Both the position numbers and the translations under genes were made by a program. The notes beneath the pieces are model-generated. The model had not been told where the DNA came from and ran no database searches. It saw nothing but the letters and a program-made list of their open reading frames with translations. 64,000 nt of DNA, taken from Bacteroidota bacterium. GTDB taxonomy: Bacteria > Bacteroidota > Ignavibacteria > UBA10030. Shown piece after piece: positions 6,640 to 33,769 of this stretch. Numbering within the stretch: the first letter of the stretch is position 1; each line of letters opens with the position of its first letter. The DNA is taken from positions 13,091 through 77,090 of the forward strand of contig JBEKEV010000002.1 in the NCBI GenBank assembly GCA_050013655.1, given 5' to 3'.

Positions 6640-7911
6640 ATGTTGCTCTACAGCCGTGGCTCAGAAAGTGACGTCCTTTACGAAGAAGATCTGAAGCAAG
6701 GACTTACTGAGGCGTTTTTAAAATTAGGCGCAAAGAAAAAGGTTTTAGCAATTCCTCCGGATTTTACTCGCTTCCACTCGCATGCCGGTATTCTCACGCG
6801 CCTGACGTGGGAGTATTACAAAGAAAAGCTCACCGATATTCTTCCGGCGCTTGGCACACACACTGCCATGACCGAAAAAGATATCAAAACCATGTTCGGT
6901 ACTACACCGCTGAATCTCTTTCGTGTGCACGATTGGCGGAAAGACGTGGTCACACTGGGGGAAGTTCCATCTGATTTTATTTATCAACAATCAGAAGGAA
7001 AATTGGATTATGCATGGAAGGCGCAGGTCAACAAACTTCTTGTGGAAGGGAATTTTGATTTGATATTGTCGCTTGGCCAAGTGGTGCCGCACGAAGTTAT
7101 CGGCATGGCGAACTACAACAAAAATATTCTTGTGGGAACCGGCGGACCTGAAGGGATTAACAAAAGTCATTTTCTCGGAGCTGTGTACGGGATGGAACGC
7201 ATTATGGGACGCGCAGACAATCCGGTACGACGCGTTTATAATTATGCATCAGATCATTTTGCAAAGCATTTGCCGATCGTCTATGTTCAAACGGTTGTCT
7301 CGCGCGGCGCAGACGGACAACTGAAAGTTCGCGGTTTCTATATTGGCGATGATATGGAATGCTTTAATCTTGCAGCAGCATTATCGCTCAAAGTAAATTT
7401 TCAAATGGTTGAAGAGCCATTGAAGAAAGTTGTCGTGTATCTTGATCCATCGGAATTTAAAAGTACCTGGCTTGGCAACAAGAGTATCTATCGTACTCGC
7501 ATGGCAATTGCCGATGGAGGAGGACTGATCGTTCTGGCTCCGGCTCTCAAAGAATTTGGCGAGGACAAGCAAATAGATGCGCTGATTCGTAAATATGGTT
7601 ATGTCGGTACGCCAAAAGTATTGGAACTTGTGAAAGCCGAAGACGACCTGAAAATAAATTTAGGTGCAGCTGCACATTTGATTCATGGTTCGTCGGAAGG
7701 ACGCTTCTCGATTACGTATTGCCCCGGGTATCTTACGAAACAGGAAATCGAAAGTGTCAACTTCAACTATGCAGAGTTGAACAAGATGACGAGGAAGTAC
7801 GACCCCGAAAAACTCAAAGATGGTTTTAACATCATGCCCGATGGAGAAAAGATATTCTATATTTCAAATCCAGCATTGGGTTTATGGGCTTATCAAGATC
7901 GTTTCAAATAG
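6640..7911 (+). CDS. LarA-like / DUF2088-family protein (function unknown)
   Basis: 423-aa ORF. The overall pattern ([38 protein letters not shown]) recalls lactate-racemase-N-terminal-like proteins. Assignment is from memory only. Confidence 0.5.
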
Positions 7912-9531: not shown

Positions 9532-10239
9532 ATGAAAAAGAATGCCTGTATTCTCATAAGAATAATTTTCTGGATATTGTTTGTAGGCTTATCTTTTTGC
9601 TTGGCGACAAGTCCTTTGCAAAGAGACAGTTGTGCTCAATCCGATACTACTAAAATTACAGAATGGGAATTATCGTCGATATTGGAATCTTCTCCCCAAG
9701 GGATAACGGTTGTTGGAAAGCCGGAAATAGTGTATTGTCCCTATGGCAAAGCAGTTCAGTTTGATGGGCAAGATGATGCAATGATACTCGATACCAATTT
9801 GTTGGTGAACATGCATCAATTTACTATTGAAGTCATTATGCACCCGGATACAAACGGACAACGTGAACAACGGTTCCTTCATTTCGGAGAGGTGCAAGGG
9901 GAACGTGTGATGATCGAAACGAGATTAAAAAAGAATGATCAATGGTACCTCGACACGTACATGAAATCCGGACAAACAGCGCAAAGGCTTGCGGATTCCA
10001 CGAAACTTCATCCGCTCAATCAATGGTATCATGTCGCCTTTGTTGCGAATGATGGAAAGATGGAAACGTATGTCAATGGCAGGAAAGAGCTTGAAGGACA
10101 AATTCCTTTTTCACCGTTTACCATAGGTCAAACTTCTATCGGTGTAAGGCTCAATCGTGTAAATTGGTACAAAGGAGTGATTTATAAAATCAAAATTACA
10201 CCAATGAAACTGGGACCGGCACTCTTTATGAAACAATAA
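9532..10239 (+). CDS. secreted LamG/concanavalin-like domain protein
   Basis: Signal or anchor peptide (ILIRIIFWILFVGLSFCLA). FTIEVIMHPD ... WYHVAFVANDGKMETYVNG ... IGVRLN pattern is typical of the LamG jelly-roll. Confidence 0.5.
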   Translation: MKKNACILIRIIFWILFVGLSFCLATSPLQRDSCAQSDTTKITEWELSSILESSPQGITVVGKPEIVYCPYGKAVQFDGQDDAMILDTNLLVNMHQFTIEVIMHPDTNGQREQRFLHFGEVQGERVMIETRLKKNDQWYLDTYMKSGQTAQRLADSTKLHPLNQWYHVAFVANDGKMETYVNGRKELEGQIPFSPFTIGQTSIGVRLNRVNWYKGVIYKIKITPMKLGPALFMKQ

Positions 10240-10268
10240 TAAATCGTATGAGATTGCATCTGTAAAAA

Positions 10269-12101
10269 GTGAAAACTGTCCCCGCCCAATCATACAACAA
10301 GATTTCATCCTTTCCGACCTCTGTCAAAGAAATGCGGGAGCTTGGATGGGAACAAGCCGACGTCATATTATTTACCGGAGATGCATTTGTCGACCACCCG
10401 GCATTCGGTGCAGCGGTTGTTGCACGAGTACTGAAAAAAGCCGGATATACAGTCGCCATTGTTCCCCAACCTAACTGGCGCGACGACCTCAGGGATTTTA
10501 AGAAATTAGGAATACCAAAACTGTTCTTCGGAGTGACATCGGGCAATATGGACTCGATGATCAACCATTATACAGCAAACAAACGCCTCCGTTCCAACGA
10601 TGCATTCACACCTGGAAATAAAGCAGGCCAGAGATCCGATTATGCAGTAATGGTATATTCAAAAATCCTGAAATCACTCTATCCTCAAGTTCCCTTAATC
10701 ATCGGGGGAATTGAAGCTTCGCTCCGCAGGCTTACGCATTACGATTATTGGAGCGACTCTTTGAAACCTTCCATATTGATCGATTCAAACGCAGATCTGC
10801 TTGCCTATGGAATGGCGGAAAAAGCTATTGCTGCAGTGGCAAAGAGATTAAGGAGAGGCGAAAGTATTGGAAGCATAAAACAAATTCCTCAAACAGCTTT
10901 TTGTGCAAAAGAAATTCCTTCCGCACAAAATGATAAAATAATTTTACTTGCATCGTATGAGGAATGCATGAAAAGCAAGAAAGCGTTCGCACGCAATTTT
11001 GTGATCACCGAAGAGGAATCAAATAAACTTGAACAACGGGTTCTTGCTGAGAAAGCAGGGAATAAATGGGTGATTGTGAATTCTGCATATCCGCCGCTTT
11101 CGCAGAAAGAAATTGACAGTATTTATAATTTGCCGTTCACACGTCTGCCACATCCACGCTATGATGGCAAAGAGCCGATTCCAGCGTATGAGATGATCAA
11201 AGATTCTGTGATAATTCATAGGGGATGTTTTGGAGGTTGTTCGTTTTGCACCATTTCGGCTCATCAGGGAAAATTTATTTCAAGCCGTTCTAAAAGTTCT
11301 ATACTGAAAGAACTAAAGACAATCGTTCATGCTCCATCTTTTAAAGGACACATTACCGATTTAGGCGGACCTTCGGCAAATATGTACGAGATGAAAGGCA
11401 TTAATGCCAAGCAATGTGCCGTATGCAAGCGACCGTCGTGCCTGTACCCTGTTCTTTGTAAAAATTTAGATACTAATTACACTCCGCTCATTGAATTATA
11501 CAAAGAAGCGAGAAAAGTGAAAGGAATCAAAAAAGTTACTGTTGGAAGCGGAATCAGGTACGATCTTATCCTCGATAAAAAGAATAAGCCCGTCGATCCT
11601 TCGGCGCTTGAATATTTTAAGGAACTTGTCGTTCATCATGTTTCGGGCAGATTAAAAGTTGCACCGGAGCATACTTCAGAGAAAGTTTTAAAACTCCTGC
11701 GCAAACCCTCCTTCGATTTGTTCGTACATTTGTATAAGCGGTTCACGGAGATTTGTCAGGAATATGGATTACACCAGCAATTGATTCCCTATTTTATTTC
11801 AAGCCTGCCTGCGAGCGGGCTTGACGAAATGGCGGACATTTCTGTGCAAATGCAAAAACTGAATATGAAGCTCGAACAGGTTCAGGATTTTACTCCGACA
11901 CCCATGACGCTCGCCTCGGTTATGTTCTATACCGGATTCGATCCTTATACGTTGGAAAAAATGGATATACCCCGTTCGATAAAGGAAAAGAAAATGCAGC
12001 AGCTCTTTTTCTTCCTTTATGACAAAGAGAAACGCGGCGAACTTAAAGTGGAACTTTCAAAAATGAAGCGATTTGATATCATACAGCTTCTTGGCTTGTA
12101 G
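10269..12101 (+). CDS. ygiQ: YgiQ-family radical SAM protein (UPF0313)
   Basis: GTG start. N-terminal DVILFTGDAFVDHPAFGAAVVARVL, radical-SAM cluster HRGCFGGCSFC, 610 aa. Confidence 0.85.
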   Translation: MKTVPAQSYNKISSFPTSVKEMRELGWEQADVILFTGDAFVDHPAFGAAVVARVLKKAGYTVAIVPQPNWRDDLRDFKKLGIPKLFFGVTSGNMDSMINHYTANKRLRSNDAFTPGNKAGQRSDYAVMVYSKILKSLYPQVPLIIGGIEASLRRLTHYDYWSDSLKPSILIDSNADLLAYGMAEKAIAAVAKRLRRGESIGSIKQIPQTAFCAKEIPSAQNDKIILLASYEECMKSKKAFARNFVITEEESNKLEQRVLAEKAGNKWVIVNSAYPPLSQKEIDSIYNLPFTRLPHPRYDGKEPIPAYEMIKDSVIIHRGCFGGCSFCTISAHQGKFISSRSKSSILKELKTIVHAPSFKGHITDLGGPSANMYEMKGINAKQCAVCKRPSCLYPVLCKNLDTNYTPLIELYKEARKVKGIKKVTVGSGIRYDLILDKKNKPVDPSALEYFKELVVHHVSGRLKVAPEHTSEKVLKLLRKPSFDLFVHLYKRFTEICQEYGLHQQLIPYFISSLPASGLDEMADISVQMQKLNMKLEQVQDFTPTPMTLASVMFYTGFDPYTLEKMDIPRSIKEKKMQQLFFFLYDKEKRGELKVELSKMKRFDIIQLLGL

Positions 12102-12111
12102 CTTCTGCTAC
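12078..12111 (+). repeat. repeat C copy 1, the authentic 3' end of ygiQ (last codons, TAG stop and 10 nt)
   Basis: atcatacagcttcttggcttgtagcttctgctac. Copies at 13789-13822 and 14789-14822 differ from it at 3 and 5 of 34 positions. Confidence 0.85.
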
Positions 12112-12154
12112 TATTTATTGAGCGGCGGGTTTGGCTGCTTGCATTTTAAGAATT

Positions 12155-12982
12155 TCAACAATAGTCAATCAGTTGGAAATTATTTGAATAAATAAGATCT
12201 GATACAGATGGAGGACATGAATTTTTAAAAAGCCCATAATTCCTTTTTAGGAATATTTTGATAACGTCCCTCCATGCAAAACGTATCTTCTTACTAAGAA
12301 AATTAATTTCGATATATAAAGCCATAGAAACCTTTTGTTCTTCAGTGAGTCCACCCTTATATCTGTAAAGTGCAATGTCCATGGATGGATCGAAACATTC
12401 GGCAAGATTGTTGCGATTGTATCCAGAAACTGTCATTCCAACAACCTCCTTATTCAAATGAATCGTATCAGTATGAGACCATGGACTATTGTCGATACGC
12501 CGAATAAGCTTTGAAATTCTACTTCGACGATCGTAAGAAAATAACGAGTCCCCAACTTCTGCGTGAGCCAATAGACGGTCACAAGCTTCTTTGTACCATG
12601 GTAGAGGCTTTCTATAAAATAAAGGAGGAAACTTGGTTAAATCAGAAGCTGCATTAAATGATACACTTCGGTGTGTCATATTCATGACGAACTGAATGGC
12701 ATAAGGATTATCTTCGTTTTCATGGAAATAATGGTCCATATACTCTTTATCGAAACCATTCTTGTATGAATATAAATAAAGAGGGTTAATATGATTAAAA
12801 TTACCCTCTTTAAAGCGGAATGACGAGTAATGAGTAATGTCAAGCAAAAGGAAATCTCTACCAAGATGAAAACCCATAACATTATTCTTCGGAGATGAGA
12901 CGATATGTACGTTTTCAAGGTCGGGATACTTGAGATTATATGTACTATCAACTGGGTCTAATATTTTTAAAATCGATTGCAT
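12155..12982 (-). CDS. hypothetical protein, possible permuted papain-like (YiiX/DUF830-type) hydrolase
   Basis: Start moved to ATG 12982 to avoid overlap with the upstream ORF. GDSLFSYDRRSRISKLIRRIDNSPWSHTDTI followed near the C-terminus by NSCPPSVSDLIYS resembles the His-then-Cys order of permuted NlpC/P60 enzymes. Very A+T-rich. Confidence 0.4.
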   Translation of the reverse strand: MQSILKILDPVDSTYNLKYPDLENVHIVSSPKNNVMGFHLGRDFLLLDITHYSSFRFKEGNFNHINPLYLYSYKNGFDKEYMDHYFHENEDNPYAIQFVMNMTHRSVSFNAASDLTKFPPLFYRKPLPWYKEACDRLLAHAEVGDSLFSYDRRSRISKLIRRIDNSPWSHTDTIHLNKEVVGMTVSGYNRNNLAECFDPSMDIALYRYKGGLTEEQKVSMALYIEINFLSKKIRFAWRDVIKIFLKRNYGLFKNSCPPSVSDLIYSNNFQLIDYC

Positions 12983-13011
12983 GGAGTAGTAATGTTGAAT
13001 TTTTTTAGATT

Positions 13012-13404
13012 CTATTTCATATTCTGTGCAGTAAATATAGTCAGAGAAACTAATCCAAGGATAAAAGTCAGATATTGCATAACACCGAATATGATTGCTG
13101 GTTTGTAATAAAAACGAACGTTTTCCCAAATACTATAAAATCTTAGCATACTGAAAAGAAATACGGTTCCTAATAATATTGAGGATATTTCTAATGCCCA
13201 TCCTGATATCAGAAAGCATTTATTTACCAAGATTTCTTGTAAAATATCCTTTTGCAAAGAGATCGAGATGATGACGATTCCTGTGCTTAATGAGATGAGC
13301 AATTTTCCAATATCATATGCTGTCTCATTGAATTTTTTTGTAACATTATTGATTTCATCGACCTGCTTGTTATCTTTCATTTTTTCTCCATCATTTCTGA
13401 TCAT
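13012..13404 (-). CDS. small hypothetical membrane protein (about 3 TM segments)
   Basis: 130-aa ORF with hydrophobic stretches LLISLSTGIVIISISL, FLISGWALEISSILLGTVFLF and IIFGVMQYLTFILGLVSLTIF. It is co-directional with and 30 nt upstream of the 12982 gene. Confidence 0.45.
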   Translation of the reverse strand: MIRNDGEKMKDNKQVDEINNVTKKFNETAYDIGKLLISLSTGIVIISISLQKDILQEILVNKCFLISGWALEISSILLGTVFLFSMLRFYSIWENVRFYYKPAIIFGVMQYLTFILGLVSLTIFTAQNMK

Positions 13405-13522
13405 TCTCCATTACGAAAATTTGCAAGCAACATAGCGAATAGGCGCCACTCTGTTACATTGATAATACAGGGAACAAAAAGGACAGACACATTGAGTAAC
13501 TATTCCCGAAGTTCCCCAAACC

Positions 13523-13574
13523 CAATACATCTAGTTAAAATCTACTATTTCGGTGTTCAAATAGCAACAAAAAA
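13523..13574 (-). repeat. repeat B copy 1 (52 nt), upstream of the 13404 cassette gene
   Basis: caatacatctagttaaaatctactatttcggtgttcaaatagcaacaaaaaa differs at 3 of 52 nt from 15634-15685. It lies 119 nt upstream of the start codon on the minus strand. Confidence 0.7.
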
Positions 13575-13618
13575 TCGGAAGTCTATCAATCTTGAGATTG
13601 CCTTAAAATAAAGTGATA

Positions 13619-13744
13619 GTCATTGCGGGTAAGCGAAGCCCCGAAGGGGCAAGCGACGAAGCAAACCGCAAAACAAGGTTTACTAAGCAAAACAGGTAGT
13701 TGCAGATTGCTTCTCCCGCTATAAAGCAGCGGGATCGCAATGAC
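13619..13744. other. GC-rich multi-stem palindromic element (candidate structured RNA or MITE-like unit)
   Basis: 9-bp closing stem gtcattgcg (13619-13627) / cgcaatgac (13736-13744). It encloses hairpins gcccc-gaa-ggggc (13638-13650), gaagcaa/ttgcttc (13658-13664 / 13707-13713) and cccgct/agcggg (13715-13720 / 13728-13733). Confidence 0.35.
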
Positions 13745-13788
13745 AGGGTTCTTGTGAAAACTGCCATTAGTAGTATCTCTTTAATGAC

Positions 13789-13822
13789 ATCATCCAGCTT
13801 CTTGGCTTGTAGCTTCCACTAC
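13789..13822 (+). repeat. repeat C copy 2 (ygiQ 3'-end remnant)
   Basis: atcatccagcttcttggcttgtagcttccactac would encode IIQLLGL followed by a stop. An in-frame TAG 6 codons upstream shows it is only a remnant. Confidence 0.8.
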
Positions 13823-13850
13823 TTTAGAAATATGATAAGACGAGCCTCCA

Positions 13851-14765
13851 TTATTGCTCCAAGAAATTTAAGATAGCATTGAGGCTTTCTTCGGGCGATT
13901 CTTCGTGCGGAATATGGCCGCAATTGGGAATGATCACCAATTTTGAGTTCCGAATATCCTGGTGCAATCTCTGTCCTTCCTCTAAAGGAATTGCCGGATC
14001 GTTAGCACCCCAAATGATTAAAGTAGGCACAGTAATAGTTTTGATTAAGGTTGAGATAGAATCTGGATTTGCAGGAATAATTTGTTTAGCACACTCGACG
14101 AATGAATTATAGCTCCCTGGTTGATTAAAATATTCAGCATAATTTATTATCCTCTCTTCAGACAATTTACTTTTATCATAAAAAAGATTGTGCAAAACAA
14201 AGCTTGCCATGAGATGAGTTGGGACAAGATTCATAACTACCCAATTCACGAATGGTTTTCTAAGAATATCGATGAAGTAGGGAAATTCTTGCACATAAGC
14301 AGCGGCATCTATGAGAATTAGCCGACGGATAATACCGTGAGCATGTTCGGATCGGTCTCTGAGATAAGTAAATATTGCGACTGCACCGCCATAGGAATGA
14401 CCCACAAGAGTAATGTCATGGAGCTTATGTGCCTTGAGAAAAGCAAGAACGATTTCGGCTTGATCTTCAAGAGAATATTTGCCGTCGTCAGGTTTTGATG
14501 ATAAACCAAATCCTTTTAAGTCTAAAAAGAAGAGCGTATTTCCTTTTGAAAGCGGTAGTTGAATGTCTCGCCAAGTTTCTACAGAAGCTCCAAAACCATG
14601 GAGAAATACAAGAGTGGAGTTCCCACTGCCGTGAATCTCGTAGTTGATTTGTATTTTATCGGAATAATAGAAGGTTCCTTTCAAAAAATCTGTCTCTTTG
14701 CTGATATTCATTGAACAGCTGCTTAAAAACAATAGCAAAAGAACAGCGATGATTGATTTGCGCAT
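13851..14765 (-). CDS. alpha/beta-fold hydrolase, lipoprotein
   Basis: Lipobox LLFLSSC, HGFGAS, nucleophile elbow GHSYGG, and C-terminal catalytic His context NCGHIPHEE. Confidence 0.85.
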   Translation of the reverse strand: MRKSIIAVLLLLFLSSCSMNISKETDFLKGTFYYSDKIQINYEIHGSGNSTLVFLHGFGASVETWRDIQLPLSKGNTLFFLDLKGFGLSSKPDDGKYSLEDQAEIVLAFLKAHKLHDITLVGHSYGGAVAIFTYLRDRSEHAHGIIRRLILIDAAAYVQEFPYFIDILRKPFVNWVVMNLVPTHLMASFVLHNLFYDKSKLSEERIINYAEYFNQPGSYNSFVECAKQIIPANPDSISTLIKTITVPTLIIWGANDPAIPLEEGQRLHQDIRNSKLVIIPNCGHIPHEESPEESLNAILNFLEQ

Positions 14766-14788
14766 CTCATTTTATATCTAATTTGATA

Positions 14789-14822
14789 TCATTCAACTTC
14801 TTGACTTGTAGCTTCCGCTCCG
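14789..14822 (+). repeat. repeat C copy 3 (ygiQ 3'-end remnant)
   Basis: atcattcaacttcttgacttgtagcttccgctcc, preceded by tttgat, reads FDIIQLLDL followed by a stop, with an in-frame TAA just before it. It lies exactly 1000 nt from copy 2. Confidence 0.8.
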
Positions 14823-15025
14823 TATTACACCTATGCACACCATGAATTTACTTATTTCTAATTTGAATTGCACAACGCGCAATGATCTTGAAGAATATCT
14901 GCGTCTCGACTTTGTCGGGAATGGTGCACACTCTTGTGTGCATCAATTACACGCGGCCTCCGGCTGTGCTGAATTCTTCTGGACACGCCGAGCTTGAGCA
15001 TCGGGGGGTTAATCAGTTCAACTCC

Positions 15026-15517
15026 TTATACTTCTTTAAACTTATGCTTCTTTAATTCCTTCGTCGCTGTGAGCAATTCAGAAAAAGGAACAAGAACTTT
15101 TTGCTCTTCTATCGGATGCTTGCCATAATTACGAACAGCGGTTACTGCAACCTTATCTGCTACTGGATTGAACAGCCTTGAATAAAGAAACGGATGGTAC
15201 CCGGCTTGTTCTAAGCAGGTTGTCACAAATTGAGTTTGCACATTGTCAGTACTGCCAAAGACACGGACCATACCTTCGGTAATTTCCAAATCAGAATGGT
15301 TATCACAAAGGAATATCTTGTTTACATCTGTTCCACATTTCTTACAGAATGGTTTAAAACAGATGACGCAGACGCCTTCAGCTTGAATAGACTTATGGTT
15401 AACACAAAACAGATCATCGGAGAATAAACTGCCACAATTCCTGCAAAAAGTATCTTTTTGCTTAACAGGTTTTTCACATCGTCCACACGTCAAGTTAAGT
15501 TGTTGTGACTTTTTCAT
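15026..15517 (-). CDS. zinc-ribbon / B-box-like Cys-His-rich protein with C-terminal alpha/beta domain
   Basis: CGRC-x13-CRNC zinc ribbon, then CVNH-x8-CVIC-x5-CKKC-x11-CDNH. The C-terminal VRVFGSTDNVQTQFVTTCLEQAGYHPF resembles DUF2007-type domains. Confidence 0.55.
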   Translation of the reverse strand: MKKSQQLNLTCGRCEKPVKQKDTFCRNCGSLFSDDLFCVNHKSIQAEGVCVICFKPFCKKCGTDVNKIFLCDNHSDLEITEGMVRVFGSTDNVQTQFVTTCLEQAGYHPFLYSRLFNPVADKVAVTAVRNYGKHPIEEQKVLVPFSELLTATKELKKHKFKEV

Positions 15518-15633
15518 GTTTATCCCTTTTGTGAAGCGCCTAATGGATGGCGGCTAAGTGGAACAACCGGCAAAAAAGGTAATGGCAAGAATAGGTAGTA
15601 AGTGTTTCATAAAAGAATTCCCCAATCAATTTT

Positions 15634-15685
15634 CAATACATCTAATTAAAATCTACTATTTCGCTGTTCAAATTGCAACAAAAAA
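15634..15685 (-). repeat. repeat B copy 2, upstream of the 15517 gene
   Basis: caatacatctaattaaaatctactatttcgctgttcaaattgcaacaaaaaa lies 117 nt upstream of the start codon on the minus strand. Confidence 0.7.
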
Positions 15686-15837
15686 CCCTCCCTTTGCTAT
15701 CGCGGCGGGAGGCTGTTATTCTCCAGATAAATACAGAATGCCTTTAAGAAAAAAACTTGTATTCACTTTTATCATTTGGTATATTTATTACACACGTAAA
15801 GAAACATGATTCTTAAAGAAATTCTTTAAATAACGAT

Positions 15838-15911
15838 GCACCCGTAGCTCAACTGGATAGAGCATCAGCCTTCGGAGCTGAGGGTTGGGGGTTCGACTCC
15901 CTCCGGGTGTA
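15838..15911 (+). tRNA. tRNA-Arg (anticodon UCG)
   Basis: Cloverleaf folded by hand: acceptor GCACCCG/CGGGTGT, D arm GCTC..GAGC, anticodon stem TCAGC/GCTGA with loop CTTCGGA, T arm GGGGG-TTCGACT-CCCTC. No encoded CCA. Confidence 0.9.
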
Positions 15912-15976
15912 CTAGTTATAAATTCCGCAAAATCCAAACCCAAGATGTCCATGGACATTATTCATGGAGCACAGCT

Positions 15977-16543
15977 ATGAAATCTATTAAAAAAATGTAC
16001 GAACGAATGAAAGTGTTTTGTATCGCATATCCGGCTGTAGTTTCAGGATTCTTCATATACAGTTATCTTTTTTTCTGCATCCTGCAGTATTTTTTCAAAT
16101 TGAAATCATCTTCATTGTTTCACTCTCCTATTTTGACGGACATCGTTGAAAGTTTTGATGCTTTTCCGTTTATGTGGCTTTTATCGGTAGCATTGGTGAA
16201 GGTTATTGAGGTGCGTACGAAATTGCACGAGAGCGAGGAGAAAAGAATTTTTGCCGAGCGCGAAAAACAGCTCCGTCAATCACAACTGAAAACCTTGCAG
16301 GAAGTTACTCGCGGAGTGCAGCATCACGTCAACAATCCTTTAGCAATCATTGCACTTACACTAGCACCTGCTCGTAAAGCCGCAGGGAATAATCAGAACG
16401 TACTGCACCAGCTTGATATCATAGATGAAGCCGTGCAAAGAATGAGTACTGCATTGGAAGATTTCTCGAAAATTCGCGAATATACCGTTGAATCCGGAGG
16501 CCCGATCGTGGGCGATATTGTTACACCGAATGTCAAGTCGTAG
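15977..16543 (+). CDS. membrane protein with an isolated HisKA-like dimerisation/phosphoacceptor domain (no ATPase domain)
   Basis: Two N-terminal TM segments, a coiled region, and the H-box-like GVQHHVNNPLAIIAL. The ORF ends after about 70 more residues with no N/G1/G2 boxes. Confidence 0.5.
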   Translation: MKSIKKMYERMKVFCIAYPAVVSGFFIYSYLFFCILQYFFKLKSSSLFHSPILTDIVESFDAFPFMWLLSVALVKVIEVRTKLHESEEKRIFAEREKQLRQSQLKTLQEVTRGVQHHVNNPLAIIALTLAPARKAAGNNQNVLHQLDIIDEAVQRMSTALEDFSKIREYTVESGGPIVGDIVTPNVKS

Positions 16544-16611
16544 TATTGTCCTTCAAGTTGTTTCATGAACAAAGTTTTATAATGAGAATTGTACGGGCCT
16601 GAAAGGTTCTT

Positions 16612-17085
16612 TTGCCAACCCAGCATGAACAATGGATGAAAGCTGCACTTCGAGAAGCACGACGTGCTTTCGATGCTGACGAAGTGCCGGTGGGGGCTGT
16701 CATTGTGCTTGAGGGAAAAATTATTGGCCGCGGGTATAATCAAATAGAACAGCTGAAGGATCCGACCGCCCATGCTGAAATGATTGCAATTACTGCCGCT
16801 TCAAATCATCTGCAATCAAGACGATTGGAAAAATGCACATTGTATGTAACACTGGAACCCTGTCCGATGTGTGCAGGCGCAATAGTGCTCGCAAGAATTC
16901 CTACACTTGTCTTTGGAGTATTCGATCCGAAAGCGGGCGCTTGTGGCACGCTGTATAATATCACAGAAGATAAACGGCTTAACCACACTGTTCATGTTGT
17001 CGGCGGTATTTGCGACGGGGAAAGTGAAGCTCTGTTGAAAGAATTCTTTTCGAAAGTGCGAAAGTCATCTGCAACAAAAAATTAA
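16612..17085 (+). CDS. tadA: tRNA adenosine(34) deaminase TadA
   Basis: HAEMIAI and PCPMCAGAI zinc motifs, 157 aa. TTG start at 16612, with an alternative in-frame ATG at 16636. Confidence 0.9.
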
Positions 17086-19484: not shown

Positions 19485-21329
19485 ATGAAGCAAACATTAA
19501 ATATACGGCCCATAGAGCTGCTCGCTCCTGCTAAAGATTTAGAAAGCGGAAGAGCCGCTATCAACCATGGTGCCGATGCAGTGTACATCGGTGCCCCCAA
19601 GTTCGGTGCACGTGCTGCCGCGGGAAATTCATTGAATGATATTGCCAAACTCATTCGGTATGCTCATCGTTACTGGGCGAAGGTGTATGTTGCACTCAAT
19701 ACGATTCTTTTCGATGACGAATTAGATGAGGCAAAGGCAATTGTCCGATCCATTTCTGAAGCCGGAGCTGATGCTTTGATCATTCAGGATATGGGATTAC
19801 TGGAACTTGATTTGCCGCCAATTCCCCTCTTTGCTAGCACACAGACGCATAATTACTCACTGGAGAAAATTCAATTTCTTGAAAAAGTCGGATTTCAACG
19901 CGTCATTCTTGCACGTGAACTGTCATTAAAACAATTGAAGGAAATTCGTACAAACACTACAATCGATTTGGAATTCTTTATTCATGGAGCACTCTGCGTC
20001 AGTTTCAGCGGGCAATGTTACTTGAGTCAAGCGACACAGGGGAGAAGTGCCAACCGTGGAATGTGTGCCCAGCCATGCCGCTTGCCCTATACGTTGTCAG
20101 ACGGCAGCGGAAAGATTCTGGCAAAAGATAAATATCTCCTTTCTCTCAAAGACCTCAACCTCTCAGAGTATCTCCGGGATTTGATCGATGCCGGTGTTTC
20201 GTCGTTCAAGATTGAAGGAAGATTGAAGGATATGAATTATGTAAAAAATGTTACAGCATTCTATCGACAACGAATTGATGAGATTTTAGAAACAGATTCA
20301 GCTCTTTCGAGTGCATCATCAGGACGGACGATGCCGGCGTTTCAACCCGATCCATCAAGAACGTTCAATCGTGGATTCACCGACTATTTTATCCGACGCC
20401 GGAACAAAGATATTCTTTCGTCTCACACACCAAAATCGGTTGGAGCTTGTTTAGGAAAAGCCGGAAAGATACGTCGAGATCATTTTCTTCTCGAGACTTC
20501 AGAAACGTTGCATAACGGCGATGGAATATGTTTTTTTGATCAACGCGAAGTACTCTGTGGTACGAATATTAACAAAGTAGAGAGAAATAAAGTCTACCCT
20601 TCTGAACTTGAAGGAATCGAAGAAGGGACGATGATCTACCGGAACTACGATCATCAGTTCGCAAAAAAACTTCAAGAAAATAAAACGAAACGTCTTATCA
20701 ACGTGAACATGCAGCTCGAAGAGACTGGAAGTGGTTTTGTACTCAGTATGGTGGATGACGATGATGTGATGGTTTCCGTTATTCAAAAAGTTGAGAAAAT
20801 TCCTGCAAAGAATCAGGCTGCGGCAGAGGAAACGGTTCGGCGTCAGCTTATGAAATTGGGAGATTCTATCTTCGTTTCAGAAAGGCTTGCTATTATATGG
20901 AGTCAGCCATATTTCATGCCGGTCAGCGTGTGCAACGAATTGCGGCGTGAAGCGGTTGCTCAATTGGAAGAAAAACGAACGAAGAGATTTCCACGGCACC
21001 ATGCAAGCATTATTCCGAATAGTGAACCATATCCGACGATACGCTTAGACTATTGTGCAAATGTTGCGAACAAGAAATCGGAATCGTTTTATCGCAGACA
21101 TGGCGTTGAAATTATCGAACCGGCGTTTGAACTCCAGAAGAAAAAGCAAGCGGCTGTTATGACGATGAAGCATTGTCTACGATTTCAATATGGTCTTTGC
21201 GCCGGTCAAGGTACTGCCGATGCTGATCCGCTTTTTCTTCAAGACGCAAAGAATACGTATCGATTGGAATTTGATTGCGAAGCATGTCAGATGAAAATAT
21301 TGTTTGAAAAAAATGGCAAGGCAAAATAA
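19485..21329 (+). CDS. U32-family peptidase-like protein (long form)
   Basis: U32 signature EFFIHGALCVSFSGQCYLS. N-terminal ELLAPAKDLESGRAAINHGADAVYIG. Confidence 0.85.
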   Translation: MKQTLNIRPIELLAPAKDLESGRAAINHGADAVYIGAPKFGARAAAGNSLNDIAKLIRYAHRYWAKVYVALNTILFDDELDEAKAIVRSISEAGADALIIQDMGLLELDLPPIPLFASTQTHNYSLEKIQFLEKVGFQRVILARELSLKQLKEIRTNTTIDLEFFIHGALCVSFSGQCYLSQATQGRSANRGMCAQPCRLPYTLSDGSGKILAKDKYLLSLKDLNLSEYLRDLIDAGVSSFKIEGRLKDMNYVKNVTAFYRQRIDEILETDSALSSASSGRTMPAFQPDPSRTFNRGFTDYFIRRRNKDILSSHTPKSVGACLGKAGKIRRDHFLLETSETLHNGDGICFFDQREVLCGTNINKVERNKVYPSELEGIEEGTMIYRNYDHQFAKKLQENKTKRLINVNMQLEETGSGFVLSMVDDDDVMVSVIQKVEKIPAKNQAAAEETVRRQLMKLGDSIFVSERLAIIWSQPYFMPVSVCNELRREAVAQLEEKRTKRFPRHHASIIPNSEPYPTIRLDYCANVANKKSESFYRRHGVEIIEPAFELQKKKQAAVMTMKHCLRFQYGLCAGQGTADADPLFLQDAKNTYRLEFDCEACQMKILFEKNGKAK

Positions 21330-22730: not shown

Positions 22731-25700
22731 ATGAAAAATAATCTTATGCATCGCGCAATTGGCGCAATCGTACTATTCATTTCTGCCGTTCAGCTCATCA
22801 TGACTGCACAGGTTTCTGTCCCATTCTGGGATCCTGGCGAACTCTCCGCAGCCGCCTACTTGATGCAGGTGCCGCATCCGCCTGGCGGACCTCTCTTTTC
22901 GATCATGGGCAGAATATTCTACATGCTTCCTATCCCTGGCGATATTGGTTTCAGGATGAATGTTATGTCTTCTGTTGCGAGCGTCTTTACGGTTTTATTT
23001 TTGTACCTCATCGCCGTCAAAGTCATTGAAAACTACAAAGGAAAACAATCCGGTAATTCGTTAGAAGCATTAGGAACGTACCTCGCTGCTGCCATCGGAG
23101 CTTTAACGTTATCGTTCAGCGATACGTTTTGGTTTAACGCGGGTGAATCTAATTATTTTGCAGCAAGCATGTTGCTCTATTCTTCTATTGTATGGTTGAT
23201 GATGGTGTGGAATGAAAAAGCCGACGAACCGGGAAGCGAACGATATCTTTTGATGATTGCATACATAGCCGGTTTATCAGCGGGACTTCATCTGATGAGT
23301 GTTCTGACGATAATTATAGTAGGGATTGTTGTAGTTCTTCGAAAGTATGTCAATAACGATGAAGAATATTTACAGTCATCATATGTCTTTTTAGGACATA
23401 TGGTTTTGTTATTCATTGTTGCGGCTATTTTTTGGAGCGGACAAACTGCAAAGCAACCGCCTACACAGGAGATGACCAGTGCATTCGACAAGAATTTCAT
23501 TATTGCGATGGTGATAGCGAGTACTGTTGTTATGGCAATCTTTAGAAAAAAAATATTACACGAACAATGGTATTATGGTATTATTCTGATGGTGTGTGCT
23601 CTATTGACAGTTGTTCTCACGGATACTGCAAAAATAATCATGGCGATCATCAGCGGGATATATTTTATTATTTTTATGAAAAAAATATTTAAACAAAATT
23701 CCATCTACAACGGGATAATGACAGGGGCCATAGCATTCGTTGTAATCTTTGCCGGCATTATTAGATATTTTCCTGAAGGGCTTTTTAAAATTGCAGGAGA
23801 TAATCTTGGAACAGGTCTTCTCGTCCTTTTAGCCGTAATGGCAGCAGGAGGATTGGGAGCGTATTATGCAATGAAACAAAAGCGAATGTTCCTTGCTCTT
23901 TCTCTTACAGCTGCACTTATTGCGATATTCGGTTTTACGACATACACGATGATCGTTATTCGTGCAAACGCAAACTTACCAATGAATGAAAATCATCCAA
24001 AGTCGTTTGAACAACTTATTAAGTATTTAAATCGAGAGCAGTACGGTGATTTTCCCATGTTTCAACGACGATGGTCGTCAGAGCCGGAAAAAGCGGGAAT
24101 CTATACAAATTACAGTAGTGATCTCGATTTCTTCCTACGCTATCAAATGGACCATATGTTCCAACGTTATGTTGGATGGAATTTTATCGGGAAAATCTCA
24201 TCTGATCAAGATGCAGGAGTAAATTGGAAAGGATATTATGGCATACCATTCCTCTTGGGTCTATTCGGCCTCTATACGCACTTCCGAAAAAACTGGAAGA
24301 TGGCATCTGTCTTTCTCATCACGTTTATTCTCATGGGATACTTAATTACTTTCTATCAAAACCAGCAGCAGCCGCAGCCGAGAGACCGTGAATATTTTTA
24401 TTGCGGGGCATATTTCGTTTTTGCACTTTGGATCGCGCTTGGTATCAAAGGGTTGCTTGATATTGTTCAGAAAAAAATAACATCGCAGTCGGCTGTGAAA
24501 CCTGCATTTATTGGAGTGCTTGTGTTGAGCATACTCTTTGTTCCTGCGAGAATGCTGCAACTCAATTATTTTACACATGATCGTTCGAAGAACTGGGTTC
24601 CATGGGATTTCGCATACAACATGTTACAGACATGCGAGCAGGATGCGATTCTTTTTACTCAGGGCGACAATGATACATTCCCTTTGTGGTACATGCAGGA
24701 TGTGGAAGGTGTGCGGCGGGATGTGAGAATTGTGAACTTGAGCCTGGTGAATACACCATGGTACATCCTCCAGATGAAGAATACACCGGCATATGCTGAG
24801 GCAAAAGCGGTGCCGATGAATATGCCTGATTCATACATTAAAGATATTCAACCGATCGCATGGGAACCGAGAAACGTCGAGTTGCCAATTTCACAAGAAA
24901 CGATCCGGCACTTTCAGGAAGAGAAGGGAGTTGTCCTTGATACATCTATTGTCAATAACGGAAAAATTACATTCCTCCTTCCCAATACATTACAGTTTGG
25001 CAAAACAAAAGCGCTCCGTGTGCAAGATATTGCTGTGTACGATATCATACTGGCTAATGAATGGAAGCGGCCTATTTATTTTGCCTCTACATGTTCGCCG
25101 GACGCAAAGATTGGATTGGAAGACTATATGTGGTTCAAAGGATTGTCTTGGAAGCTTGAACCGGCGAAGACCTCAGAGATTAATTATGGAGTAGATCCTA
25201 TAAAGATGGAAGCTAACCTTATGAATGAACCATCGGATTTTTCCAAGACTCTGAAATATGGATATAAATTCCGTGAATTGGCAAATCCAAAAGTATTTTT
25301 TGATGAAAATACAATTCGCATTATTTCCAATTATCGGGGAGCATTTCGTGGACTTGCCGCATATTACATAAACGTAGAAAAAAATCCACAAAAGAGTATG
25401 AAGGTGTTGGACAGGATGGAATCGCTTATGCCGCATACAAAAATTCCCTATGGGTGGCAGTACGCATGGCAAATGGCGAGTTTCTATCACACACTTGGAC
25501 GTATGGATCGGGTGAAGGAAATGGAAACAGAGATTGAGCCGGCGTGTCTCAGTCTTATTGAGAAAGGCGAGGTGGAGATGAATTCCTATTATAATCCATA
25601 CCGCGCGCTTCTTGATCTTTACGAGATGACAAAAGAACAGGACAAGTCACTCAACGTTCTCCGGAAATTAGCGGTGCTCTATCCGACTGACACGAATATT

Positions 25701-25772
25701 AAGCAAAGAATTCAAATGTTAGAACAAATGAGCAAACAATCCGCTGCACCCACACCGGAAAAGGGAAAGTAA
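22731..25772 (+). CDS. DUF2723-family polytopic membrane protein (putative glycosyltransferase-like) with C-terminal TPR-like region
   Basis: N-terminal WDPGELSAAAYLMQVPHPPGGPLF, many TM segments, 1013 aa. Confidence 0.75.
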   Translation: MKNNLMHRAIGAIVLFISAVQLIMTAQVSVPFWDPGELSAAAYLMQVPHPPGGPLFSIMGRIFYMLPIPGDIGFRMNVMSSVASVFTVLFLYLIAVKVIENYKGKQSGNSLEALGTYLAAAIGALTLSFSDTFWFNAGESNYFAASMLLYSSIVWLMMVWNEKADEPGSERYLLMIAYIAGLSAGLHLMSVLTIIIVGIVVVLRKYVNNDEEYLQSSYVFLGHMVLLFIVAAIFWSGQTAKQPPTQEMTSAFDKNFIIAMVIASTVVMAIFRKKILHEQWYYGIILMVCALLTVVLTDTAKIIMAIISGIYFIIFMKKIFKQNSIYNGIMTGAIAFVVIFAGIIRYFPEGLFKIAGDNLGTGLLVLLAVMAAGGLGAYYAMKQKRMFLALSLTAALIAIFGFTTYTMIVIRANANLPMNENHPKSFEQLIKYLNREQYGDFPMFQRRWSSEPEKAGIYTNYSSDLDFFLRYQMDHMFQRYVGWNFIGKISSDQDAGVNWKGYYGIPFLLGLFGLYTHFRKNWKMASVFLITFILMGYLITFYQNQQQPQPRDREYFYCGAYFVFALWIALGIKGLLDIVQKKITSQSAVKPAFIGVLVLSILFVPARMLQLNYFTHDRSKNWVPWDFAYNMLQTCEQDAILFTQGDNDTFPLWYMQDVEGVRRDVRIVNLSLVNTPWYILQMKNTPAYAEAKAVPMNMPDSYIKDIQPIAWEPRNVELPISQETIRHFQEEKGVVLDTSIVNNGKITFLLPNTLQFGKTKALRVQDIAVYDIILANEWKRPIYFASTCSPDAKIGLEDYMWFKGLSWKLEPAKTSEINYGVDPIKMEANLMNEPSDFSKTLKYGYKFRELANPKVFFDENTIRIISNYRGAFRGLAAYYINVEKNPQKSMKVLDRMESLMPHTKIPYGWQYAWQMASFYHTLGRMDRVKEMETEIEPACLSLIEKGEVEMNSYYNPYRALLDLYEMTKEQDKSLNVLRKLAVLYPTDTNIKQRIQMLEQMSKQSAAPTPEKGK

Positions 25773-29611: not shown

Positions 29612-32600
29612 ATGGAACACGCATTCGCATTGATCAAGCAGCTTGTAGCAGACTTCAAAGCTCAGGAAGCGGCATACCTCTCATCATCATATCAGGAACA
29701 ACATGTTCGTGAAGACTTCATCAATAAATTCTTTATTGCGCTTGGCTGGGACGTTACGCATGAAAGGCAGAAGAATCCGTATGAGCAGGAAGTTAAAATA
29801 GAAAATAAAGTATCAACGCAAGGCTCACAGCGACGTGCGGACTATGCATTCTTCATTGCTCCCAATTTCCGCGATGTAAAGTTTTATGCTGAAGCAAAGA
29901 AGCCTGCCAAGAATCTGAAAGACGCCGCATTCTATCACCAGACAATCCGTTACGGATGGAACTCCGGTACTCCTATAGCAATACTCACCGATTTTGAAGA
30001 ATTTCATATCCTCGATTGTCGGTACAAACCCGATATTGAGGATGCACTGAATCGCAAGCTGGAATATTTTCATTATTCCGAATATGCAGACGAAGAGAAG
30101 TTTAAGAAAATTTTCTTTCTCTTTGGCCGTGAAACTGTTGCCAATGGTTCTTTAGAGAAATATGCCGCAATGCTTCCGAAGCCGCGCGGAAAAGCGAAAC
30201 AACGCGGATTGTTCAAAGGCGGATACCAACCGGTTGACGAAGCATTTCTTGAAGAATTAGATTCGTACCGCGAAACGCTCGCCAAAGCGTTCAAGAAAGA
30301 GAATCCCGACCTTGGAAGTGAAGAACTGACAGAAGCTGTGCAGAGAACAATTGACCGGCTTGTGTTTATACGTTTTCTGGAAGACAAGCAGATTGAAGAC
30401 CCTCAAATGATCAATTACAGCGAGGCGAGTTCTGCATGGAAAAAGTTTTCAACACATTGCCGCGCATTGGAGCCGAAGTATAACGGACTCGTATTCAAGA
30501 AGCATCGCATTCTGGATGACAGCGGATTTGTTCCACCGGATGATAAGACATTTGCAGGTATTTGCGAAGAACTTGCCGACCCGTCATCACCGTACGACTT
30601 CGATAAAATACCGATCTCGATTCTTGGAAGTATTTATGAACGCTTTCTTGGCAAAGTAGTTCACGCAACCGCAAAACAAGTAAGGGTTGAACCAAAACCA
30701 GAAGTACGGAAAGCGGGGGGTGTCTATTACACGCCGCAGTATATTGTGCGCTACATTGTAAAAGAAACCGTTGGCAAGTTGTTGTATGCGACCCCTACCG
30801 TCTCGACAAAAAACGTCGAGCCGACTCCCCCTTATCAAGGGGGAGAAACTCAAGACAAAATTTCCTCACCTCAGCGAGGGGAGGTGTCCCGCAGGGACAG
30901 AGGGGTTGATAATTTCGACTCACTGCAAGGGAAAACGCCGGAAGAAGTTGCGAAGATGTCATTTGCAGATATTGCATGCGGCAGCGGTTCGTTTTTGATT
31001 GAAGTGTACAGCGTATTGTTGGAATACCACGAACGATATTACGCTTCGCACCCGGAAATGGCAAAGAAGGGTGACCTTTCTACGCGGGATGGAAAACAAG
31101 TACTCTCGCTGAGAAAGCGGCAAGAGATTTTAGTGAACAATATTTACGGTGTGGATATTGATTTTCAAGCGACGGAGGTAACACAGCTTTCGTTATATTT
31201 GAAACTGTTGGAAGAAGCAACACTGAACGACGCAGTGCAATTTTCATTGCTGAAAGAGAAACTGCTCCCCGACTTGAGAAACAATATTATATGCGGGAAC
31301 TCGCTGATTGGAATAGACATAAACACAGGAGAGTTGTTCGAGAACGAGGAATTGAAAAAACTAAAACCGATGAACTTTGAAGATGCATTCCCTGCGGTGA
31401 TGAAAAAAGGGGGATTCGATGCGGTAGTGGGAAATCCACCGTATAGAATAATTGGCAAAGCCGACATTACAAAGCAAACAGCGTCTTATCTAGTAAAGAA
31501 ATTCACAAGCTTTCAATACAAAGCCGATCTTTATCATTTATTTATTGAGAAGGCTCTTGGTTTGTGTCGAACAAACGGATTAATAGGATATATCACACCA
31601 AACACATGGTACACATTACCTTTTACACAAAAGCTTCGACAATACGTCTTAGAGAATTCTCATTTAGTGCTCTTTGTTATTTTCAATCATCAAGTATTTA
31701 AGGAAGCCAACGTAGATACCGTAATAACAATTGCTAAAAAAATCAGTAAACAAAGAACAAGATATGAAAATGAAGTGCTTGTGTTTAATATGCCTAAAGA
31801 ATTTGAAGCAAAACAATTAGAAACAGTAATACCTCAAAGGAAAAAACAAGGTGATTGGATTACAAACGAGACGAATCAGTTCGGAATAAGAACCACAACA
31901 GAAGAACAGAACATCCTAGACAGGATTGAAAAAGTATCTAAACCTCTAACAGATATAGCGAAAGCATCGCTTGGCACACAAGCATACAACAGCAGCAAAC
32001 ATACAAAAGATCAAATCAAGGATAGAGTGTTCCATTCAAAGAAAAAAGTGAGCAAAGATTATTTAAAAGAATTATCAGGCTCTGATATCGGAAGATACAC
32101 ATTGCAATGGGCAAAAAAGGAATGGATCAAATATGGTCCTTGGCTTCATGATTATCGAACGATGGATTGGCTTGAAGGACCTAGGATTCTTATCCGAGAA
32201 ATTACAGGCAAGGGTACCTACAAGATATGCGGGATGTATGTTGAAGAGATTTACTGCAATTATAAAACTATTCTAAATGTGATTTATGGAAATGAACATA
32301 AATATTCAATGAAATATTTCTTGGGATTATTGAATTCGCAATTTCTCTCATGGGTTTATCCAAGAGTCTCAAATAAAACTGTAAAAGATTCGTTCCCGAG
32401 ACTTTCGGTTTCCGATCTCAAAAAACTTCCCATACGCACGATTGATTTTGCAAACGAAGCAGAGAAAGCGAAGCACGACCACATTGTAAGTCTGGTAGAG
32501 CAAATGTTGAAAGCAAAGGAAGAACTTGCGGCGGCAAAGTTAGACTCGGATGTCCAACGGCTTGAGCATCGCTGCGCCACGCTTGACCGCCAAATTGACG

Positions 32601-32665: not shown

Positions 32666-32777
32666 CCGCGACCGCTGGTCGCGGTGAAGGAAATACCGAG
32701 GTCAACGACCTCGGCTATAGATGTATACAGGCAAAGAACCGACGTCATCCGCCCAACACGCTGGCGGACAGGGCGAC
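32666..32777. repeat. cluster of three GC-rich REP-like palindromic units
   Basis: ccgcgacc-gct-ggtcgcgg (32666-32684), ccgaggtc-aac-gacctcgg+ctatagatgta (32696-32725), and ccgacgtca+tccgcc-caacacgc-tggcgga+cagggcgac (32739-32777). Confidence 0.7.
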
Positions 32778-33646: not shown

Positions 33647-33714
33647 ATCTTCACAACCTAAGCGAAGGAAAGAATTAGAAAAACTTAGGAATTTGAATAG
33701 AGCAAAGCAGAAAA

Positions 33715-33769
33715 CCGAGGTCATCCGCCATGAAGATTGGCGGACAGGACGACCTTAGCTACAGATGTA
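33715..33769. repeat. composite REP-like unit related to 32696-32777
   Basis: ccgaggtca+tccgcc-atgaagat-tggcgga+caggacgaccttagctacagatgta. This equals the 32696 unit with the 32739-type hairpin nested inside it. Confidence 0.7.

Follow-up and report, generated by a model that had tools for sequence, protein, structure and literature searches.

The window analysed here is a stretch of 64,000 nucleotides (positions 13,091 to 77,090 of contig JBEKEV010000002.1, assembly GCA_050013655.1, forward strand) from a Bacteroidota bacterium of the GTDB lineage Ignavibacteria, UBA10030, and the subject of this analysis is a tandem array of small gene blocks that lies in it between the radical SAM gene ygiQ and a tRNA-Arg gene. 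The ygiQ gene is intact (10269..12101, + strand; Pfam Radical_SAM_N, Radical_SAM and DUF3362) and finishes in a segment that we call E1 (12072-12111, 34-nt core 12078-12111), composed of the last nine sense codons, the stop codon and 10 nt that form a small GTAGC..GCTAC hairpin. Repeat comparison finds this functional end again, on the same strand, in two displaced stubs, E2 (13785-13822, core 13789-13822) and E3 (14782-14821, core 14788-14821). The interval from E1 to E2, hereafter cassette 1 (12112-13784), contains a conserved module of two minus-strand genes, the first encoding a transmembrane (TM) protein of 130 residues (13012..13404) and the second a protein of 275 residues without family match (12155..12982). 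E2 is followed by a minus-strand gene for an alpha/beta hydrolase of 304 residues with a lipoprotein-type N-terminus (13851..14765; Pfam Abhydrolase_1 and Abhydrolase_6), and E3 by a minus-strand gene for a zinc-ribbon protein of 163 residues (15026..15517), whose Pfam zinc-ribbon matches are weak and below the gathering score. The tRNA-Arg(TCG) gene (15838..15912, + strand) is the conserved right border of the region.

The three copies of the ygiQ end are real and are not expected by chance. A search of the 64 kb agrees with the initial annotation of this DNA in that E2 differs from E1 at 3/34 core positions and E3 at 5/34; a 28-mer with up to three mismatches matches exactly three sites in the window and none in 100 shuffles. 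The similarity to E1 begins at 13785 for E2 and at 14781/14782 for E3, and the perfect identity common to E1 and E2 extends over 22 nt only. Two earlier figures need a small correction: the core of the third copy has its first base at 14788 and not at 14789 as first given, and the distance from E2 to E3 is 999 nt rather than exactly 1000. The low G+C content ascribed to the intervening genes is clear for cassette 1 (0.354), whereas over whole segments the contrast of the hydrolase (0.384) and zinc-ribbon (0.387) parts with the window (0.429) and ygiQ (0.423) is modest.

Both stubs can still be read as gene ends. The E2 frame reads ..YLFNDIIQLLGL and a stop, and is preceded by an in-frame TAG at 13771-13773; that of E3 reads FDIIQLLDL and a stop, preceded by an in-frame TAA at 14779-14781. 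The differences in Ile and Gln codons among the copies are synonymous. The C-terminus RFDIIQLLGL is conserved in the 610-residue YgiQ homologues of close relatives, and real YgiQ proteins ending in LLDL, LLEL and LLNL exist, which fits the earlier proposal that each copy once ended a working gene. The 10-14 nt after the ygiQ stop are also conserved and make up a small hairpin, classed as terminator-like by a simple scan, so that there is a functional reason for their conservation. Moreover, three further independent assemblies have positions 10000-17000 of the window at 100% identity, and the match of a fourth contig continues up to its own end at 13661; the array is therefore real and fixed in the population and not an assembly artefact. 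In each of the other assemblies of the population that covers it, all of them consensus assemblies, the array is unchanged and without excision variant.

The repeat is confined to this gene. Searches in the window and in species genomes return matches at ygiQ ends only, so the possibility that it is a common genome-wide element was rejected: the three copies in the 64 kb all lie at this locus, and the E pattern has three matches in 185,579 species genomes, all of them ygiQ ends and none elsewhere, one being the only match in a complete 3.6-Mb chromosome of a relative. No match to E was found in the viral database IMG/VR, and a phage attP origin was rejected for that reason. The cargo proteins have no relatives in IMG/VR either, and the 275-residue protein has none among the plasmids of PLSDB.

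To place the array in context, about twenty loci around the ygiQ genes of relatives were compared (labelled L001, L002 and so on). These relatives carry YgiQ homologues of 81-94% identity and are uncultured Ignavibacteriota, some recorded as "Bacteroidota", known from metagenome-assembled genomes of peat and fen metagenomes. Their flanks are syntenic: 6PGD, a LamG-like gene and ygiQ on the left; tRNA-Arg, a 188-residue HisKA-like gene, a deaminase, RF-1 and others on the right. As the initial annotation had anticipated, the relatives differ exactly in the interval between ygiQ and tRNA-Arg, which has at least eight alternative contents, including that of the window, besides an empty site. L008 and L009 carry nothing there, ygiQ and tRNA-Arg being about 180-270 nt apart. 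L002 and L092 carry the hydrolase only; L005, L087 and L091 a RelB-YafQ pair, then a second copy of the ygiQ end of 204 nt, then the hydrolase; L088 a SEC-C protein and GmrSD; L090 a small membrane protein; L001 a zinc-ribbon remnant and a Big_1 protein; L096 an anti-sigma/ECF (extracytoplasmic function) sigma pair, a hydrolase and an IS1595 fragment; and L101 four small genes, one of them for a DUF4760 protein. The interval is thus a small hypervariable islet in this Ignavibacteriota clade, with a common layout in which a promoter-like block beside the tRNA gene reads toward ygiQ through one to a few cargo genes.

Read against these relatives, the sequence beyond each stub of the window is what follows an intact ygiQ elsewhere. 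The stretch from 13785/13786 to 14790 aligns at 90-93% with the ygiQ end and hydrolase of L002, L087, L091 and L092; in several relatives the hydrolase gene is the direct neighbour of ygiQ. The left limit of this alignment is the left edge of E2 (within one base) and its right limit falls inside ATTTGATATC, at the left edge of E3. The "stop" of E2 lies 38 nt from the hydrolase stop, the same distance that separates the real ygiQ stop from it in L002 and L092, and positions 13785-13826, which contain E2, are 97.6% identical to the gene end of L088. The alignment and the equal spacing identify E2 as the native gene end of the hydrolase-type islet. Likewise, positions 14781-15181 (E3 and the sequence downstream) are 74% identical to L001 11803-12179, which is a real ygiQ end with its downstream sequence, so that E3 is the gene end of the zinc-ribbon-type islet; in L001 a truncated zinc-ribbon remnant adjoins ygiQ. 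Beyond the zinc-ribbon gene stands the resident promoter-like block D2b (15634..15685, minus strand), within a homologous stretch from 15614 to 15850 beside tRNA-Arg.

Cassette 1 was found at ygiQ in none of the relatives' loci examined, and its boundaries coincide with E1 and E2. Its two-gene core (12154-13416) is 78% identical at the DNA level to L093/L094, where the module lies between a DinB_2 gene and a metallo-beta-lactamase-fold gene and is free of ygiQ-end sequence; in L093-L095 E is likewise absent beside the TM/275-residue module. The 275-residue protein, described at first as papain-like, could not be verified as such: it has no match in Pfam, NCBIfam or PADLOC, its AlphaFold model is unusable (predicted confidence, pLDDT, of 40), and only two homologues turned up.

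The rest of cassette 1 is informative about its origin, because it contains a second repeat family that the initial annotation had overlooked. The D2 block with its leader X occurs at 13456-13574 and at 15634-15685. The first of these, X-D2a (minus strand), is a second copy of the promoter-like block with 5' leader; its 52-nt repeat is 94% identical to 15634-15685, and as a whole it is 82-89% identical to the single copy that stands upstream of the first cargo gene in L002, L088, L091, L092 and L101. In those relatives X-D2 is found once, between the first cargo gene and tRNA-Arg. To the right of X-D2a follows a flank sequence z (13575..13784), carried in with cassette 1 and ending at junction A (..AGTATCTCTTTAA|TGACATC). 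A homologue of z lies to the right of X-D2 in L101, including ..AGTATCTCTTTTTAATATCCC and the last bases ..AGTATCTCTTT(TT)AA. Since cassette 1 contains X-D2a-z, the window has two copies of both islet borders, as is expected for whole islets that have been stacked and unexpected for a discrete cassette. To judge from these borders, cassette 1 is the whole islet of a related chromosome with both its flanks and not a discrete element.

Within z we also observed a G+C-rich element (13619-13745) with inverted repeats of 9 nt, GTCATTGCG and CGCAATGAC, at its two limits. Its fold, a multi-branched hairpin, is far better than those of shuffled versions (z-score -4.87), and the element has the look of a miniature inverted-repeat transposable element; a related copy stands in inverted orientation at the equivalent place in L101 (about 7085-7200).

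The window thus consists of three alternative versions of the islet, head to tail. Version 1 is ygiQ with E1, the TM and 275-residue proteins and its own promoter-side flank X-D2a-z; version 2 is E2 with the hydrolase, whose own leader has been lost; version 3 is E3 with the zinc-ribbon gene, the resident promoter block and tRNA-Arg. Version 1 meets E2 at junction A, with an overlap of about 1 nt by comparison with L101, and version 2 meets E3 at junction B, where a 10-nt microhomology, ATTTGATATC (14781..14790, + strand), is common to the 5' untranslated region (UTR) of the relatives' hydrolase gene and to the ygiQ end. With the stop-codon end as reference point, one junction falls at -27 and the other within -30 to -21.

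A third event of this type is found among the relatives. In L005 (7290-7816), L091 (11977-12503) and L087 a RelB-YafQ toxin-antitoxin pair stands on the + strand between ygiQ and a decaying stub of 204 nt, joined at -204. The stub ends in ..QHPGL in L091 and has lost its stop codon in L087. The three lineages share the same junction, so RelB-YafQ was probably added once, long ago; the 204-nt segments, compared in pairs, have distances that are uninformative on which of the two copies is foreign, and no attC-like motif was noticed around the pair. Further events could not be counted from protein data: the last 69 residues of YgiQ retrieve 18 short fragments from the protein database, three of which map to the loci studied, where one is a true stub and the other two are pieces of real genes, which makes the list unusable for this purpose. 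A metagenome scan with YgiQ gave, among the matches listed, mostly distant relatives. By eye, older decayed copies of E seemed plausible between the cassettes of L088 and L101; nhmmer gave them no support and they were discarded.

The ygiQ gene itself is a mosaic. In comparisons with L001, L002, L005, L087, L088, L090-L092, L096 and L101 the nearest relative changes along the gene, some windows of 120-150 nt having two or three mismatches to one relative and neighbouring windows typically 10-25; homologous exchange among these lineages must then be frequent. Two sister lineages, L091 and L099, were in fact recovered from one sample (JGI 3300052918). The boundaries of the alleles past the ygiQ stop are variable too, from +0 to about +37.

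From these observations, the reading that we favour, with a probability of about 0.58, is that E2 and E3 are displaced, non-coding 3' stubs of ygiQ and that homology-anchored illegitimate recombination has piled alternative islets one upon another. The anatomy of the array, the origin of each block and the sequences of the junctions are observed, as is the lack of a recombinase in the regions searched; how the DNA recombined, in which order the additions took place and by what route the DNA entered are inferred. DNA from a sister lineage, or from the sister chromosome, would pair homologously within ygiQ, and its far end would be joined illegitimately inside the 3' end of the resident gene, with a microhomology that amounts to 10 nt at junction B and to about 1 nt at A, as in homology-facilitated illegitimate recombination. 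The incoming block would supply a new gene end, and the old end would be pushed downstream together with its cargo. The same mechanism has been proposed for the orphaned 3' regions that accumulate behind a conserved 5' anchor at Rhs loci and in the effector-immunity arrays of Vibrio cholerae's type VI secretion system (T6SS) (PMC5361080).

Several points weigh against it. In ygiQ no more than about 9 nt separate the two junctions of the window, and where L101 is homologous to the donor side of junction A it reads TTTTTAATATC, a sequence similar to TTTGATATC. The near-coincidence hints at a preferred site; it may equally reflect chance and the survival of short stubs, which escape RecA-mediated deletion. 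Three events only were examined, two of which nearly coincide in crossover position and the third of which lies at -204. A donor genome with a single islet composed of ygiQ, the TM/275-residue pair and X-D2-z was not found among the relatives, so that the donor side of junction A is deduced from L101 only; in the 3' part of ygiQ, where traces of the donor of cassette 1 were sought, there is no shift toward L101. To our knowledge, natural transformation and homology-facilitated illegitimate recombination have not been demonstrated in Ignavibacteriota. Finally, an intragenomic tandem duplication with subsequent turnover of the cargo would give the same picture. In that case an unequal or illegitimate exchange between sister chromosomes would have duplicated the islet in its entirety, ygiQ end and promoter flank included, and the cargo of each copy would have been replaced later, through integron-type cassette exchange or homologous recombination. 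The doubling of both borders (E and X-D2) and the junctions with little or no homology agree with such a history, and turnover of cassettes is plausible in an attC array of the kind described below. The copies are, however, as divergent from each other as separate lineages, both for E1, E2 and E3 and for the X-D2a and D2b flanks, and their best matches differ: L088 and L092 for E2, L088 and L101 for X-D2a-z, and L001 for E3 with its downstream sequence. These different affinities favour import from diverged lineages, and duplication, which needs extra steps, seems unlikely to us.

Site-specific recombination was the explanation given in the initial annotation, which described successive integrations at the ygiQ 3' end and took the repeats for att-like scars of elements either mobilised in trans or decayed. 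The successive additions of gene ends are borne out; the att mechanism is not. It would require small integrase-less elements to enter an att site with a core around TTTGAYATC, each bringing a replacement gene end, with the recombinase acting in trans as in the mobilisation of pseudo-SCC elements (SCC, staphylococcal cassette chromosome) at rlmH. Several observations speak for it: at TGAYATC, two junctions out of three are no more than about 9 nt apart; the hydrolase block of the relatives is flanked by ATTTGACATC in ygiQ and by ATTTGATATC in the 5' UTR; the L101 homologue of the end of cassette 1 reads TTTAATATC; presence and absence of cassette 1 have the repeats as their exact limits; and the new gene end E1 is unlike the native-type E2. 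A recombinase was looked for beside the array, as had been suggested. Pfam scans and synteny revealed, among the open reading frames (ORFs) of the window, neither a tyrosine or serine recombinase nor a transposase, the scans leaving out the ORFs 22731-25772, 29612-32665 and 38525-40573, which are too long for an integron integrase, and the first 21 kb being covered by synteny with annotated relatives instead of a direct scan; the gene tables of the relatives' 20-kb loci contain none except the IS1595 fragment of L096. Moreover, E occurs at ygiQ ends only and is lacking beside the same cargo elsewhere, cassette 1 carries a chromosomal promoter-side flank, and no population assembly shows an excision. 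Scars of an att site would be expected to share one fixed crossover; the junctions, no more than three in number, lie at -27, at -30 to -21 and at -204. The RelB-YafQ event joins without such a core, the overlap at junction A is 3 nt at most, and the allele boundaries past the stop range as widely as described above. We therefore consider mobilisation in trans rather unlikely. A bolder form of the idea, in which the ygiQ 3' end is the dedicated landing site, with the same core, of an unlinked and as yet unrecognised recombinase that would add whole promoter-plus-cassette blocks with replacement gene ends, in an integron-like and integrase-free stacking in a housekeeping gene, is quite improbable in our judgement.

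An integron has to be considered as well, since the unrelated cargo genes of the relatives' islets share a 3' motif and a 5' leader motif. We had considered these as terminal inverted repeats around each ORF, for which local alignment is marginal; the correct reading is that they are the R''-L'' and L'-R' halves of attC sites. L001 has at least eight repeat units of 150-195 nt, all on one strand and each between two ORFs, that start with an RYYYAAC box (GCCTAAC), end with GTTRRRY (GTTAGGC) and have a variable centre. The inner inverted pair is GGCGCT[C]AAGCTG with CAGCTTAGCGCC, with one extrahelical base, and has the compensatory variants GCACT/AGTGC, GCAACT/AGTTGC and GCGGCT/AGCCGC. In an alignment of 11 units, 87.5% of the cells pair, against 21-48% when the partners are slid, and three pairs change on both sides. 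Single-sequence DNA folding of two inter-cassette regions gave no significant stability (z-scores -0.96 and 0.03), so that it is the conserved boxes and the covariation across the 11 units, and not folding energy, that support the attC call. The analysis was done by hand; besides the eight units of L001, a profile search finds two in L101 and one each in L088 and L007. No integron integrase was found within 10 kb of the relatives' arrays. Clusters of attC sites without an integron integrase are known as CALIN (Cury et al. 2016, PMC4889954), and the islet of the relatives fits an integron-type, CALIN-like cassette array.

The attC sites of the relatives fall into two subfamilies, with GCTCAAGCTCGGCTTGTCCAGAAGAAT after the R'' box in the minus-strand arrays beside ygiQ and GCTCAAGCTGACGGAATGAGC in a + strand array of L001. 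The minus-strand type is represented by 14958-15015 of the window, by 11851-11912 and 12987-13049 of L088, by 4486-4548 of L101 and by 13965-14011 of L096. The + strand array lies to the right of tRNA-Arg in L001 (15424-21833 of the locus, on chromosome OY969585.1) and has at least eight cassettes with attC sites of 150-195 nt, some of the cassettes being internal duplicates (15488-15766, 20448-20771 and 20879-21228). It is preceded by two 23-nt palindromic direct repeats (TTAGGCTGCRATATGCAGTCTAA) and a GTTAGGT core, which have an attI-like look, and no integrase was found within the 10 kb examined around it.

In the window the traces of such sites are few. A truncated attC-type site stands 3' of the zinc-ribbon gene (14822..15025, minus strand), with its R''-L'' half at 14958-15015 (nhmmer E=1e-11 with the 5'-half model) and its L'-R' half missing; a half-site of the L'-R' type (CCACTTAGCCGCCATCCATTAGGC) is found in the leader of the same gene (15536..15566, minus strand; nhmmer E=6e-5). 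Degenerate traces occur around the TM/275-residue pair, where the short spacer 3' of the 275-residue ORF (12112..12154, minus strand) contains GCCAAAC CCGCCGCTCAA; on the minus strand this tentatively resembles, by eye and below the nhmmer threshold, the R''-L'' start of the relatives' attC. Going by these motifs, the window keeps attC relics only, and its own array does not qualify as a cassette array. The copies of E have no nhmmer match with either the half or the full attC models, and between the stub boundaries and GTTGGAT, the core found on the strand complementary to the native ygiQ end, there are 7-13 nt; on this evidence the ygiQ-end repeats are not attC sites. The earlier statement that the architecture is not a classical integron is hence right for the repeats, whereas the islet of the relatives does have the features of an integron-type array with attC sites and no integrase within 10 kb.

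It could still be supposed that an integron integrase acting in trans inserted the cassettes at secondary, attG-like GWT sites in the ygiQ end and that the copies of E are hybrid recombination sites. IntI is able to insert cassettes outside att sites, at GWT (10.1101/2022.09.11.507474), true attC arrays occupy the same islet in relatives, attC halves are kept around the zinc-ribbon gene of the window, and GTTGGAT is a perfect GTTRRRY core. The geometry does not agree with it: the stub boundaries are 7-13 nt away from the core G|TT and each stub spans both of its sides, the crossover of junction A is without GWT, and what the stubs are joined to is a 5' UTR in one case and a flank element in the other, instead of attC ends. 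Together with the lack of any attC score for E and of an intI in the window scans, this makes insertion by an integron integrase very improbable.

The favoured reading, the stacking of islets by illegitimate recombination, places the locus beside systems already described. It adds one more case to each of two known categories, 3'-end displacement scars and the decayed CALIN-type cassette islet, and most likely represents an ordinary recombination scar and not a new system of mobile elements. The closest parallel is given by the 3'-end displacement arrays of the Rhs/CdiA orphan modules and of the V. cholerae T6SS (PMC5361080, citing Jackson 2009). In both cases the anchor gene is intact and the incoming block gives it a new 3' end, the earlier ends are displaced, in the same orientation, together with the genes downstream of them, recombinases are lacking and simple unstacked versions exist in relatives. 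Here, in contrast, the anchor is a housekeeping radical SAM gene instead of a polymorphic toxin, the cargo does not consist of immunity genes, and the stubs are very short (38-40 nt, and 204 nt in the sister lineage) and bear no sign of selection. The relatives' islets share with CALIN (PMC4889954) same-strand cassettes separated by sites with attC features (the RYYYAAC R'' box, the GTTRRRY R' box, a variable centre, and pairing of L'' with L' that leaves one base extrahelical), no intI within 10 kb and cargo mostly of unknown function. They differ in the length of their units (150-195 nt), and the window differs further in having only truncated attC relics and ygiQ-end repeats that are not attC.

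A resemblance exists also with the SCC and pseudo-SCC islands of staphylococci. These stand in tandem at the 3' end of rlmH (orfX), have direct repeats that include its last codons, and in some cases are devoid of recombinase; their repeats are the defined site of the Ccr serine recombinases, are used at one fixed position and are present on the circular elements. The tandem units behind a conserved gene's 3' end and the repeats holding its last codons are common to both, but at ygiQ no recombinase was found, the three known junctions do not share one crossover position, and the repeat was met nowhere outside ygiQ ends. Integrase-free hotspots of horizontal transfer are also known between core genes, often beside tRNA genes, and as in those, many contents are found here between two conserved flanks, with mosaic flanking genes and without mobility genes. 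Ordinary double-crossover replacement leaves no duplicated flank; the additive events at this locus, unlike the hotspots, have left stubs of one flank and copies of the other. The locus is thus a worked example of an integrase-less transfer hotspot that grows by addition instead of replacement, the succession of events being recorded by short gene-end stubs and by promoter flanks present in duplicate. Moreover, attC arrays are met here in a new setting, a peat Ignavibacteriota clade whose sites between ygiQ and tRNA-Arg are unusually long and whose cargo includes GmrSD, a SEC-C-domain protein and many unknowns. For annotation it suggests caution, since direct repeats with the last codons of a gene are usually taken as att sites, and here the evidence favours illegitimate recombination.

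Other features of the window lie outside the islet. Two 47-nt direct repeats (32731-32777 and 33707-33753), 77% identical and each with a TCCGCC..GGCGGA hairpin, bracket a lone ORF of 280 residues (32804-33646) without family match, which sits between a gene for a 1017-residue protein and a pyruvoyl arginine decarboxylase gene; a further addition of a single gene, with duplication of a 3' flank or terminator, may have taken place here. A gene for a NACHT-domain protein of 650 residues (46951-48903), alone between an amidase gene and one for a succinyl-CoA ligase subunit, may be a solitary insertion of defence type. At 60399-60467, three tandem units of 18 nt (TTTCTTTTTCTCTTCAGG), with an overlapping 33-nt register, occupy the stop-codon end of a minus-strand gene for an L25/TL5 ribosomal protein, where they are presumably a coding repeat rich in Lys and Glu.

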